Source: a virus
Taxonomy: Duplodnaviria > Heunggongvirae > Uroviricota > Caudoviricetes
Length of the DNA: 13,403 nucleotides
IMG/VR virus record: IMGVR_UViG_2713896778_000008
Reading direction: 5' to 3' (one strand)
Within the stretch, counting starts at the first letter, position 1. Each line of letters starts with the position of its first letter. Made by a program: the position numbers. Shown piece by piece: positions 12,001 to 13,403 of the stretch.

Positions 12001-13403
12001 GTAACCAGTGGCCAGAAGAAACGTTTGGGTGAGGAGGATAGATGGCGTTCACTGACCTTGAATATCAAGCGGTCAAAAAAGAAGTTCACCAATTCATTGA
12101 AAGCATAAGGCCGCCTGAACATATCCGCAATGAACTGGATATTGTTTATAGCATCAATGACCAAACGATAGATATCGGCGAACAGCGCCCCGTGTGGCAG
12201 GGCAATCCAGGTGAAACAAACATCCTGCCATCAGCAAGAATCAAGTACATACGTTCTCTGGATAGATGGAAAATCTATTGGATGCGGAAGGATATGAAAT
12301 GGCATCAGTACAGTACTGAACTTTCGCTGACTGATGCGCTTGAGCTTGTGCGTGCTGACCCGGATTGCTGCTTCTTCGGATGAGTGAAGAGACGTTTGGG
12401 TGATAGGAAGTAAGTTTTATGTTGACGGCACAGTCAACTTGGCATAGATTAATTAAACCAAGCCCAGCCCCGTTCGCAGACAATTGTTAATATCTGCATA
12501 ACGGCTCTGGGCTATTTTTTTGGGACTCTTATGAAGAAAGCAGCAATTTTAATTGATGCGGGTTTTTTCATGCAGCGTGTTCATGCTACGCATCGTAAAC
12601 ACTTCGCCGAGCATGAACTGACTGCGCAATGCATAATGAAAGTAATATGGTCAATGGTTCTTTCCCATCTTAATGGAAAACGTCAATCACAAGAACGTAG
12701 GGAACCGCTTGAGCTTTATAGAATTTACTTCTATGACTGTCCACCACTCGACATTCAAACACGCCTTCCACTTCCTGAGCCTGGCAATAAGACGCCTGGT
12801 CGCAAGAATTTCAAACTCGAAAAATCATATATTCTGAGAACGGAGCTGCATGAAGAGTTAAGAAAAACTCGAAAAACAGCCTTAAGATTAGGGAATCTTG
12901 TTGATAATAAGCGATGGCAACTAACTACATTCTCCCTTGATGCTCTGATGAAAGGAACGAAAAAATGGGATGAACTGACAAATGATGATTTTTACTATGA
13001 CATCAAACAAAAACAAGTTGATATCAAGCTAGGGATGGATATCACGACTTTAGCTTATGAAAAACTTGTTGATGTAATTGTCCTTGTTGCTGGGGACTCA
13101 GACTTTGTGCCTGCCGCCAAACACGCCAGAATTAAAGGTATTGATTTTATTCTTGATCCACTAAGACAGAATGTTACCCCATCACTGTCAGAGCACATTG
13201 ATGGAGTTCAGTCATACAGCTTGATATCAGGACTTGCCGATGCTTTACATGTTGAGCCAGACCCGGCACCTGACTGGTGGGAAGATCGAAAAAAAGGCAA
13301 GCCTAGAGGAAAAAACAATAGCGGTAAACGCAGGTATGGAAACACTCAAGCTGAGTCTGCAAAGAAACATCAAAGAAATAAACGATAATCCCATCAACCC
13401 GGC

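Follow-up and report, generated by a model that had tools for sequence, protein, structure and literature searches.

A conserved hairpin leader with the form of a terminator, predicted to gate an NYN-domain nuclease gene in a tailed phage

The window analysed here is the whole 13,403-nt stretch of a Caudoviricetes record (IMGVR_UViG_2713896778_000008). Towards its 3′ end, a gene for an NYN-domain protein follows a cI gene and orf113, and the spacer before the NYN start codon is densely occupied by the features listed below.

12042–12383, + strand: orf113, a DUF3024 protein (Pfam DUF3024, 2.4e-31; PADLOC PDC-S43, 7.2e-42)
12388–12405, + strand: remnant of the 3′ end of another cI allele, GAAGAGACGTTTGGGTGA, encoding EETFG and a stop
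12419–12490, + strand: 23-codon ORF, MLTAQSTWHRLIKPSPAPFADNC, spanning the promoter and the 5′ half of the hairpin; rejected as a gene
12421–12438, no strand assigned: operator-like inverted repeat gTTGAC-N6-GTCAAc, gTTGACggcacaGTCAAc, overlapping the −35 box and spacer
12422–12450, + strand: predicted sigma-70 promoter of the leader RNA (−35 TTGACG at 12422–12427, 17-nt spacer, −10 TAGATT at 12445–12450)
12457–12521, + strand: predicted leader RNA of about 65 nt, from its start to the end of the U-run
12461–12513, + strand: irregular 53-nt hairpin, arranged as P1, CC/CU internal loop, P2, C/AU bulge, P3 and loop (fold and RNAalifold)
12461–12467 with 12507–12513, + strand: stem P1, 7 bp (direct sequence reading)
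12470–12474 with 12500–12504, + strand: stem P2, 5 bp (direct sequence reading)
12476–12480 with 12493–12497, + strand: stem P3, 5 bp (direct sequence reading)
12481–12492, + strand: apical loop of the hairpin, 12 nt, CAAUUGUUAAUA
12514–12521, + strand: A plus U7 tract (T7 at 12515–12521), completing the predicted intrinsic terminator
12522–12533, + strand: weak Shine–Dalgarno sequence GGGA (12522–12525), a 5-nt gap and the NYN ATG at 12531
12531–13388, + strand: NYN-domain protein, 285 aa, whose C-terminal tail is basic and disordered (Pfam NYN, 6.8e-9)

The NYN protein belongs to phrog_5783, a family of unknown function, and has 7035 homologues in the database. Its invariant acidic residues are D9, D69, D164, D170, D189, D191 and D224, and its AlphaFold model (pLDDT 85.5) matched the NYN domain of MARF1 best among solved structures, while a sequence search of solved structures returned no match. 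Matches to PADLOC defence models were weak (HEC-09, 2e-4; NYN, 1.4e-3). Pfam gives NYN only, and the protein is unrelated to the ToxN, CptN and TenpN families. It is a stand-alone gene: its neighbours change from locus to locus, and no protein partner recurs consistently. In Shiga-toxin phages of E. coli O121, as in O157:H7, it is adjacent to the repressor; O157:H7 retains the promoter and hairpin, but its NYN is truncated. Judged by fold and location in the genome, NYN may be a toxic effector. In the RefSeq annotation the NYN ORF is split in two and the RNA is unannotated.

A second copy of the cI remnant lies at 12010–12030, and the two copies bracket orf113, a cassette inserted between cI and the NYN module that is absent from most loci carrying the module; its match, PDC-S43, is a PADLOC candidate defence family. 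In some 400 E. coli genomes, similarity to the window sets in at 12385, at a point within or immediately after a different LexA-family cI gene, and the end of the Proteus cI (...ACGTTTTAG) is homologous to the remnant. The remnant at 12388–12405 marks the left boundary of a mobile module consisting of the promoter, the predicted leader RNA and NYN. A terminator scan gave no terminator-like site on the + strand from cI up to the hairpin, and a transcript of cI and orf113 would end at the hairpin.

The earlier note had placed a hairpin, seven T residues and a 9-nt gap before the NYN ATG, and direct reading found all three where it had put them, the gap reading GGGACTCTT. The folding-energy calculation that it proposed bore the hairpin out: the RNA from 12455 to 12525 folds at −25.9 kcal/mol compared with −14.9 ± 2.7 kcal/mol for 200 shuffles (z = −4.0), none of which folded as well. 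A stable, G+C-containing stem-loop thus lies on the transcribed strand with a U-tract directly after the stem, and we regard hairpin plus U7 as, by its form, a predicted and putatively strong intrinsic terminator. A simple terminator scan did not list it because the scan permits loops of 3–8 nt and this loop has 12. The minus strand was considered as the functional strand, since it folds better in E. coli (−33.1 kcal/mol), but the position of the T-run and the counts of G.U and A.C pairs given below favour the + strand. We found no competing fold in the minimum-free-energy or centroid structure of 12457–12600, where a terminator/antiterminator pair was sought, and Tandem Repeats Finder (minimum score 30) detected no tandem repeats in 11950–12700. 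Pairing of the loop (CAAUUG/CAAUAG) with UAAUUG/UUAUUG in NYN codons 7–9 was rejected: it fails in Tatumella, Photorhabdus and L105, and it looks compensatory between E. coli and Proteus only by appearance, because the Ile-Asp codons are conserved. The idea that the hairpin occludes the ribosome-binding site found no support: the GGGA/GGA sequence sits 3′ of the T-run, outside the hairpin, and touches it only through a marginal, non-conserved 3-bp CCA/UGG pairing.

Upstream of the hairpin we found a predicted sigma-70 promoter from which a promoter scan places the transcript start at about 12457 (ACCAAGCCC...), some 4 nt 5′ of the stem. The view that there is no room for a promoter is therefore right for the gap between T-run and ATG and wrong for the spacer as a whole, which holds one at 12422–12450. 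The element TTGACN-16/17/18-TAnnnT is positioned before P1 in 29 of 34 form-I loci (the gammaproteobacterial form of the RNA described below), although the flanking bases vary; the form-I −10 box ends 9–13 nt before P1, or 18–20 nt in Pasteurellaceae-type loci. In form-II loci and in those of Bacteroidales, P1 is immediately preceded by a TAnAAT or TAnnTTTG box. The conserved promoter would make the hairpin the 5′ leader of a dedicated transcript, and so more than a barrier to read-through from cI and orf113. Together with the terminator and the Shine–Dalgarno sequence, it gives the order of the unit: promoter, structured RNA of about 65 nt with an intrinsic terminator, weak Shine–Dalgarno sequence, NYN. 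A palindrome noted previously is present at 12421–12438, but is better described as the −35 box combined with an inverted repeat that resembles an operator. Its single occurrence in the window is not significant alone (0.48 expected); yet 12 of the 34 form-I loci share TTGAC-N5-10-GTCA with differing central bases, among them Yersinia, Tatumella, the group-B enteric sequences and two loci of Pseudomonas type. We rejected it as a cI operator, given that the OR operators differ, reading CGTACTttcAGTACG, and that the module is found alongside more than one cI allele. Reading the sequence also led us to reject a divergent promoter driven by the GTCAA arm, for which no usable −10 is present.

Form I was aligned from 24 gammaproteobacterial representatives. 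Of the 16 pairs that RNAalifold found, 15 show compensatory changes; 94.3% of cells were paired compared with 78.4% in shuffles and 26–43% when the partners were slid, a value above every shuffle and every slid control, and the covariation score of 0.566 (0.255 in the comparison) was reached by none of 500 shuffles. The alignment contains 11 G.U cells and 1 A.C cell, an excess that identifies the + strand as the folding strand. Unpaired bases are near-invariant, with T34 and A35 of the loop identical in all 24 sequences, and identity is 81–100% in the hairpin, 71–78% in the NYN coding sequence and 58–76% in the promoter. A covariance model, R1, scores the window at 79.7 bits over 12455–12524 (E = 8e-18). 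In each form-I locus searched it detects a single strong copy (at least 49 bits), which invariably lies just 5′ of NYN.

A second form of the RNA occurs in Betaproteobacteria, Acidobacteria and Elusimicrobia, with compensatory changes in P1 and outer P2 as in form I (scored on a trimmed subset with the P1/outer-P2 structure given by hand) and a conserved internal loop in which CAGUA(C/A)G faces CCGA(N)C. A third, looser form occurs in Bacteroidales. In NYN loci of all three forms a hairpin and T-run lie 5–60 nt 5′ of the approximate start codon, and practically every leader has a T-run after its stem. With the covariance models, each matched locus gave a single strong match, which lay in every case on the strand of NYN and just 5′ of the gene. 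Of the pattern matches, 39 of 41 in viruses and 9 of 9 in metagenomes had NYN directly downstream, and scans with the group-B and Pseudomonas variant patterns returned only NYN-linked copies plus two chance 20-mers (L229 and L234), both inside coding-like sequence. A GGA or GGGA box sits 8–9 nt before the ATG in enteric loci, always 3′ of the T-run, and Pseudomonas-type loci have a GGAG/AGGA-type box after the T-run and before the start. One clade of homologues in Rhodanobacteraceae has a leader hairpin with a good Shine–Dalgarno sequence and no U-run, so termination gating is not universal in the family. Rfam 15 gave no family at gathering threshold for 12380–12560 of the window or upstream of NYN in 20 diverse loci, and an E-value scan gave noise only (E above 5). 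Literature searches on NYN, DUF88/LabA, the CP-933H sRNA and the motif sequence found no description of the leader RNA. What emerges is a structured 5′ leader, found before the genes of a single family, that covaries in its stems and keeps its unpaired bases, the pattern of a cis-regulatory leader. The hairpin, its covariation, strand and linkage to NYN, and the conservation of promoter and U-run were all established computationally.

Three copies of the RNA occur without NYN. Two near-identical ones, in BSBP01 and vB_Shi_2KOFFS, both virulent phages of the Chaseviridae, replace a tRNA-like gene; the related phages phiEcoM-GJ1 and SA91KD bear the tRNA. The third, in contig L203, has an identical hairpin and occupies the lambdoid late-terminator (tR′) position, where hairpin and T-run align with the late-leader terminator of Salmonella phage UPF_BP1. 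All share the segment 12457–12521, with homology that starts at ACCAAGCCC in the Chaseviridae phages and at about CAAGCCC in L203 and stops in the T-run in every case. The setting in L203 lends positional support to real terminator activity.

We propose that 12422–12530 encodes a leader RNA devoted to the NYN nuclease gene, a prediction to which we give a probability of about 0.55. Transcription would start at the sigma-70 promoter with its operator-like palindrome, about 4 nt before the 53-nt hairpin, and the closing stem and U7 would act as an intrinsic terminator 9 nt 5′ of the NYN ATG. Most transcripts, whether from the leader promoter or incoming from the cI/orf113 immunity region, would then stop at U7 and yield an RNA of about 65 nt. 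The earlier suggestion that NYN is translatable only from read-through transcripts fits a strong-terminator form abutting the start codon: the Shine–Dalgarno sequence and the NYN ORF would be carried by read-through transcripts only, so that the nuclease would be low and gated and the small RNA in excess. We hold the termination-based gating of NYN to be highly probable, and the conservation of the terminator–NYN arrangement in many bacterial groups argues that it is deliberate. That the loop, the bulges and the internal loops hardly vary suggests a further part for the RNA as a specific recognition element, most likely for the NYN protein itself, as an antidote and/or through feedback on termination. 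Such an additional role, as antidote or NYN-binding RNA, is a reasonable possibility short of even odds; that the RNA does nothing beyond gating seems improbable. The transcript ends, the efficiency of termination, the toxicity of NYN and any contact between RNA and protein are what we infer from this arrangement.

The alternative that survives best, though we consider it doubtful, is an attenuator that acts in cis only, in which the conserved internal loops and apical loop would make up a small aptamer or protein-binding site within the terminator stem. Its occupation, be it by a protein of host or phage, by a metabolite or by a signal arising from infection, would alter termination and switch NYN on. 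A leader with covariation and invariant unpaired bases, whose closing stem doubles as the terminator and whose sole constant neighbour is one downstream gene, would suit such a device, as would the conserved internal loop of form II. There is also a precedent in the HMP-PP (thiS motif) riboswitch, a compact RNA directly upstream of its gene with an aptamer almost wholly within the intrinsic terminator stem (PMC6478431). The NYN leader likewise has conserved elements within its terminator stem, but its sequence and structure are unlike those of the riboswitch and it has no Rfam match. Against an attenuator, no antiterminator pairing is evident, and because the predicted transcript begins only 2–4 nt before P1 there is no upstream competitor strand to form one. 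No association with metabolic genes points to a ligand, and three different RNA forms accompany one protein family, a pattern more easily reached by co-evolution with the protein than through a shared small ligand.

It is also possible, though unlikely, that the RNA of about 65 nt is a trans-acting antidote that silences NYN, which would make the pair a new, non-repetitive family of RNA antitoxin and nuclease and the phage copies captured decoys. In type III toxin–antitoxin systems a promoter, a non-coding RNA, a Rho-independent terminator that sets the RNA excess and a ribonuclease-type gene follow one another, often on mobile elements; these systems act in abortive infection, and phages can escape them by acquiring the RNA (PMC5086642). 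The layout here resembles that of toxIN, cptIN and tenpIN (predicted promoter 12422–12450, terminator 12461–12521, NYN from 12531), but they have a tandem repeat array and ToxN-like toxins, whereas in the NYN leader one hairpin without repeats also serves as the terminator, and the protein has an NYN fold. Lacking a repeat array and a relative of ToxN, CptN or TenpN, the NYN locus is not a canonical type III system. In AvcID, classed as type III, the small RNA AvcI is in large excess over the toxin transcript and inhibits the deaminase AvcD directly; the system is activated when transcription stops in the course of infection, and the avcI–avcD interval has no predicted terminator (PMC10511110). 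AvcID differs in its deaminase toxin and in having no predicted counterpart of the terminator, which is the most conserved feature of the leader of the putative toxin NYN. Since the L203 copy is explained by use as a terminator, the phage copies need no decoy role.

A portable but otherwise ordinary terminator of the cI(-orf113) transcript, which insulates NYN with leaky read-through and has no sequence-specific role, is decidedly improbable in our view, for all that the hairpin and T-run have classic form, are the only terminator-like site on the + strand between cI and NYN, and recur at the late-terminator position of L203. The site downstream of cI also matches the slot of lambda rexAB. The aba element of BstA is described as a DNA element and not a terminator RNA. 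In lambda, accessory or exclusion genes lie downstream of the repressor (cI-rexA-rexB) and tImm ends the immunity transcript. NYN occupies the same slot in the same direction, with orf113 beside its module, as does BstA, a prophage defence gene next to the repressor (PMC8585504), but the NYN module has its own promoter and RNA and sits by different cI alleles and in other neighbourhoods. The hairpin accompanies NYN in those differing settings, often with no cI-like ORF upstream on the same strand, and a promoter immediately 5′ of it is conserved in many bacterial groups. Terminator loops are normally unconstrained, yet here loop and bulges are under strong purifying selection, the hairpin outconserves the coding sequence and even mismatches that weaken the stem are conserved. 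The lambdoid PR′–tR′ late leader (6S RNA) offers another comparison: a promoter gives a short terminated RNA, and downstream genes need read-through, which at tR′ depends on the Q antiterminator. The NYN unit shares the promoter and short terminated RNA, and the same hairpin at tR′ in L203; it differs in starting right at the stem and in having no known antiterminator.

A promoter within the loop is very unlikely. By this account TGtTAATAT (12485–12493) is an extended −10, the conserved loop TA belongs to the −10 box, and transcripts that start near 12500 lack the 5′ arm, are unable to fold into the terminator and so express NYN. The loop does read TTGTTAATAT, with T34/A35 as the first two bases of TAATAT, and enteric, Pasteurella-type and Acinetobacter sequences keep the T at the last hexamer position. 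Yet the element is weak, the TG is lost in Proteus, Photorhabdus and Xenorhabdus, which read AGTTAATAT, the Pseudomonas loop is TAGAAC, form-II loops contain nothing promoter-like, no −35-like hexamer lies at 16–18 nt and the promoter scan did not list the site. The 23-codon ORF pointed out in the earlier note exists at 12419–12490, but is a mechanical reading frame that is not conserved and is probably spurious: its ATG occurs in the window allele only, 94%-identical alleles have an in-frame TAG, and its counterpart is absent from Proteus and Xenorhabdus and elsewhere is just a TTG, the −35 box itself. That it encodes a leader peptide or small protein whose translation controls the hairpin is hardly credible, despite an AGGAAG 7 nt upstream of the ATG at 12419 and an end inside the hairpin loop, when it begins upstream of the predicted transcript start, its start codon and frame are not conserved, and substitutions in the hairpin track base-pairing and not codon position.

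The hairpin probably keeps a potentially toxic NYN enzyme in check. If our reading as a leader RNA is right, widespread solitary NYN nucleases (7035 database matches), frequent in prophages, are controlled by an RNA motif absent from Rfam, and a compact design in which the terminator is the regulator would join the known ways of restraining toxic effectors. RNA-antitoxin systems may then extend beyond repeat arrays and ToxN-like toxins. Should the antidote account prove true, it would define an abortive-infection family in Proteobacteria, Acidobacteria, Elusimicrobia and Bacteroidales, and the copies in BSBP01 and vB_Shi_2KOFFS would disarm NYN lysogens, in parallel with phage TE and ToxI.

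We found the hairpin, the seven T residues and the 9-nt gap to the NYN start codon as the earlier note had described them from the sequence, and the folding-energy calculation proposed there gave −25.9 kcal/mol for the RNA from 12455 to 12525, against −14.9 ± 2.7 for shuffled sequences (z −4.0). The hairpin is real and far beyond chance; a consensus terminator scan that permitted loops of up to 8 nt missed it only because of its 12-nt loop. Stx2a-converting lambdoid prophages of E. coli O121:H19 are 100% identical to the window, whose + strand runs in the leftward direction of lambda. 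The locus is laid out as follows, with P1 to P3 denoting the stems from outermost to innermost.

Features of the locus (window coordinates)
cro, − strand: first in the gene order, followed by cI
11274-11981: cI, HTH and S24 peptidase
12042-12383: orf113, DUF3024; matches the PADLOC candidate PDC-S43 (E 7e-42)
12384-12530: spacer of 147 nt from orf113 to NYN
12461-67 with 12507-13: P1
12470-74 with 12500-04: P2
12476-80 with 12493-97: P3, 12-nt loop
12515-21: T7, preceded by an A and followed by 9 nt
12531-13388, + strand: NYN protein, 285 aa, ATG at 12531

Given this gene order, and with N, cIII, kil and recombination genes beyond NYN in related genomes, NYN occupies the slot that belongs to rexAB in lambda. 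On the + strand, the hairpin is the first terminator-like site 3′ of cI and orf113. Homology with about 400 E. coli genomes starts at 12385, exactly where a different cI allele ends. GAAGAGACGTTTGGGTGA (12388-12405) is what is left of a cI 3′ end (EETFG*), and it is repeated ahead of orf113 at 12010-12030. The two relics and the start of homology therefore mark orf113 as a cassette that entered between cI and a module of promoter, hairpin and NYN already in place. The relics form a direct repeat around this cassette, (A)GAAACGTTTGGGTGAGGAGGA and GAGACGTTTGGGTGATAGGAAG at 12005-12045 and 12383-12423, which points to entry by recombination at cI 3′ ends. Elsewhere in the window, on the − strand (3272-3355, 3915-4000, 4023-4110 and 1-54), there are Rfam matches to sRNA-Xcc1, C4 antisense RNA with its a1/b1 targets, and isrK, together with a partial tRNA at the window edge that is probably the attachment site.

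The earlier note was right that the spacer contains a palindrome, but it overlooked a promoter there: a promoter scan placed a promoter-like site, TTGACG-17-TAGATT, at 12422-12450, with the TTGACG of the palindrome as its −35 box. Transcription is predicted to start at about 12457, 4 nt ahead of the stem; the spacer is therefore a small transcription unit rather than an empty gap ending in a terminator, and from this predicted promoter its entire product is the hairpin and U-run. TTGACN-16/17/18-TAnnnT precedes P1, amid variable neighbouring bases, in 29 of 34 loci carrying form I, the gamma-proteobacterial RNA type. In these form-I sites the distance from the end of the −10 box to P1 is 9–13 nt, rising to 18–20 nt in Pasteurellaceae-type loci; form II, the type of Betaproteobacteria, Acidobacteria and Elusimicrobia, has TAnAAT-type boxes at the equivalent position. 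An inverted repeat with a free centre, TTGAC-N5-10-GTCA, includes the −35 box in 12 of the 34 form-I loci (two of them Pseudomonas-type); the overlap, with the motif as TTGAC-N6(-9)-GTCA(A), occurs at window 12421-12438 and in loci L151, L149, L007, L107, L119 and others, from E. coli to Pseudomonas-type. The repeat looks like the operator of a putative dimeric regulator; this phage's own cI was rejected as that regulator because cI operators differ. Further TTGAC motifs and palindromes, which may be tandem promoters or operators, lie 5′ of the leader promoter in several loci (L226 ~860-1125; upstream regions of L213 and L215).

We compared 159 loci from genome and viral collections, the NYN protein having 7035 relatives in databases. 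Every relative down to about 46% identity has a long irregular hairpin followed by a T-run just 5′ of the start codon. The hairpins of 24 gamma-proteobacterial representatives (including E. coli, Tatumella, Yersinia, Photorhabdus, Xenorhabdus, Proteus, Ewingella, Pasteurella, Pseudomonas, Acinetobacter, Marinobacterium and a Thiohalomonadales genome) align nearly without gaps, and RNAalifold found compensatory double changes in 15 of 16 predicted pairs. Paired cells made up 94.3% of the alignment's pair positions, compared with 78.4% after column shuffles and 26–43% when partners were slid, and the covariation score of 0.566 (0.255 shuffled) was reached by none of 500 shuffles. G.U cells outnumbered A.C cells by 11 to 1 in the form-I alignment, which assigns the structure to the + strand, that of NYN; the E. 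coli − strand taken alone folds slightly better than the + strand. R1, the covariance model built from form I, detected one strong copy per form-I locus, invariably just 5′ of NYN.

The hairpin is constrained beyond its pairing. Between E. coli and Yersinia, Photorhabdus, Proteus, Xenorhabdus, Tatumella and others, identity is 81–100% in the hairpin, 71–78% in the NYN coding sequence and 58–76% in the promoter region. Most hairpin differences are compensated pairs, for example GCAGA/UCUGC to GUAGA/UCUAC, or CCCAG/CUGGG to CCUAG/CUAGG, CCCGG/CCGGG or CUUGG/CCAAG. Hardly any variation is seen in the CC/CU internal loop, the bulges or the 12-nt loop, and two bases of this loop are the same in all 24 sequences. 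Plain terminators do not normally have constrained loops or preserved stem defects, and so the leader RNA is probably recognized specifically by some partner.

Form II is found in more distant homologues, including those of Burkholderia, Cupriavidus, Acidovorax, Halomonas, Dyella jiangningensis, Acidobacteria and Elusimicrobia. It comprises a P1 of 8–9 bp, frequently with a pyrimidine-U mismatch, an internal loop of CAGUA(C/A)G opposite CCGA(N)C, a variable P2 and a U-run, with compensatory changes in P1 and outer P2; its covariance model, R2, detected it at the same position in 16 loci at E <1e-5, 5 of them outside the seed alignment. Bacteroidales loci have a longer RNA, form III, with a Bacteroidetes-type TAnnTTTG promoter box 5′ of it. 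In a chromosomal clade of Rhodanobacteraceae the leader is no more than a short GC hairpin lacking a U-run, with a good Shine–Dalgarno sequence, so that terminator gating is common in the NYN family but not universal. In these Rhodanobacter, Dyella and Frateuria chromosomes (L020-L062), a TAnAAT box and hairpins such as GCCGGCC-ACCUAUG-GGCCGGC accompany a strong AAGGA Shine–Dalgarno.

Pfam assigns the protein to NYN, and the phage family phrog_5783, of the function-unknown group, takes it in. A sequence search of solved structures returned no homologue; the best solved-structure match to the AlphaFold model (pLDDT 85.5; C-terminal tail basic and disordered) is the NYN domain of MARF1, a ribonuclease. 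Seven acidic residues are invariant, PADLOC matches are weak, and the gene is solitary, its neighbours varying among loci. Its fold, its linkage to prophages and its position lead us to infer a role in defence or as a toxin. RefSeq (PGAP) splits the 285-aa ORF (L001 4542-5399, L002 4147-5004) into a hypothetical protein, "pseudo, missing C-terminus", and a 117-aa NYN protein, which looks like an annotation artefact because homologues in other genera are full length.

Pattern scans placed NYN directly 3′ of the hairpin in 39 of 41 viral and 9 of 9 metagenome contigs; one of the two viral exceptions, L187, retains only the last ~30 NYN codons. Among 5426 complete E. coli genomes, 275 carry the E. 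coli-type hairpin. O157:H7 is one such case, in which a defective prophage at the tRNA-Thr gene adjoining proA keeps cI, promoter and hairpin with a truncated NYN. O157:H7 strains (Xuzhou21, L211 3501-3969) have an NYN of just 129 codons, with an integrase remnant behind it. Since promoter and hairpin are kept there, O157:H7 could make the small RNA without its nuclease. In L203, an Enterobacter-type lambdoid contig (2649-3699), an identical hairpin without NYN follows a Q-like antiterminator gene, a PR′-like promoter and a ~270-nt leader, immediately precedes tRNA-Arg(TCT), and aligns with the late-leader terminator (tR′ position) of Salmonella phage UPF_BP1; here the hairpin takes up a terminator position. 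The virulent Chaseviridae BSBP01 (L003 3001-3062) and vB_Shi_2KOFFS (L005 3-63) have a copy of the hairpin with 98% identity that spans ACCAAGCCC to the T-run and lacks NYN. It occupies the exact site at which the close relatives phiEcoM-GJ1, SA91KD and TH24 (loci compared: L165 945-1039, L167 764-855 and L166) have a tRNA-like gene, whose anticodon loop is of the Arg UCG type and whose D-arm contains a long insert; the flanks are conserved on both sides. This copy could likewise be a terminator, or a captured decoy.

Comparison across loci supports promoter, structured RNA, U-run, Shine–Dalgarno and NYN, in that order, as a unit conserved on the NYN strand. Most transcripts would stop at the U-run, so that a ~65-nt RNA is in excess and read-through is the only source of NYN. 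The "tight gating" proposed in the earlier note is thus partly right; besides missing the dedicated promoter, it wrongly retained a small ORF and occlusion of the ribosome-binding site as options. The 23-codon ORF exists in the window, but only this allele has its ATG: an in-frame TAG interrupts it in the 94%-identical alleles, Proteus and Xenorhabdus lack any ORF, the sole "start" elsewhere is the TTG of the −35 box, and the frame begins 5′ of the predicted transcript start. We treat it as spurious. The GGA/GGGA Shine–Dalgarno follows the T-run in the compared loci and is therefore not occluded by the hairpin, their sole contact being a marginal, non-conserved 3-bp CCA/UGG pairing. A second predicted hairpin (12530-12572), in which the NYN start and Lys codons (UAUGAAGAAAG) pair with Phe-Phe codons (GGUUUUUUCAU) of the conserved DAGFF motif, might lower translation initiation.

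The HMP-PP riboswitch is a precedent for recognition elements lying within a terminator stem (PMC6478431), and AvcID has a different kind of non-coding RNA antitoxin able to inhibit a defence toxin (PMC10511110). We prefer a reading in which NYN itself recognizes the RNA, which would serve as antidote and/or feedback, to a small-ligand switch, because three different RNA forms accompany one protein family, the predicted structure of the leader region contains no visible antiterminator fold, and there is no protein partner. The proposed logic resembles that described for type III toxin–antitoxin loci, in which a terminated RNA is in excess and the downstream gene is expressed by read-through (PMC5086642). 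However, two defining features of such loci are absent, as no repeat array was found at the NYN locus and NYN is not ToxN-like; by analogy, the leader would work like a type III system without being a member. Rfam 15 had no family at threshold for the window or for 20 diverse loci (a permissive scan gave only noise), and neither this prophage RNA nor any RNA 5′ of NYN/LabA-type genes turned up in full-text literature searches, including one with the RNA sequence itself. Our preferred description of the element is a terminator-leader RNA, conserved and un-catalogued, that belongs to NYN nuclease genes and is a variant of known attenuator and type III-like designs.
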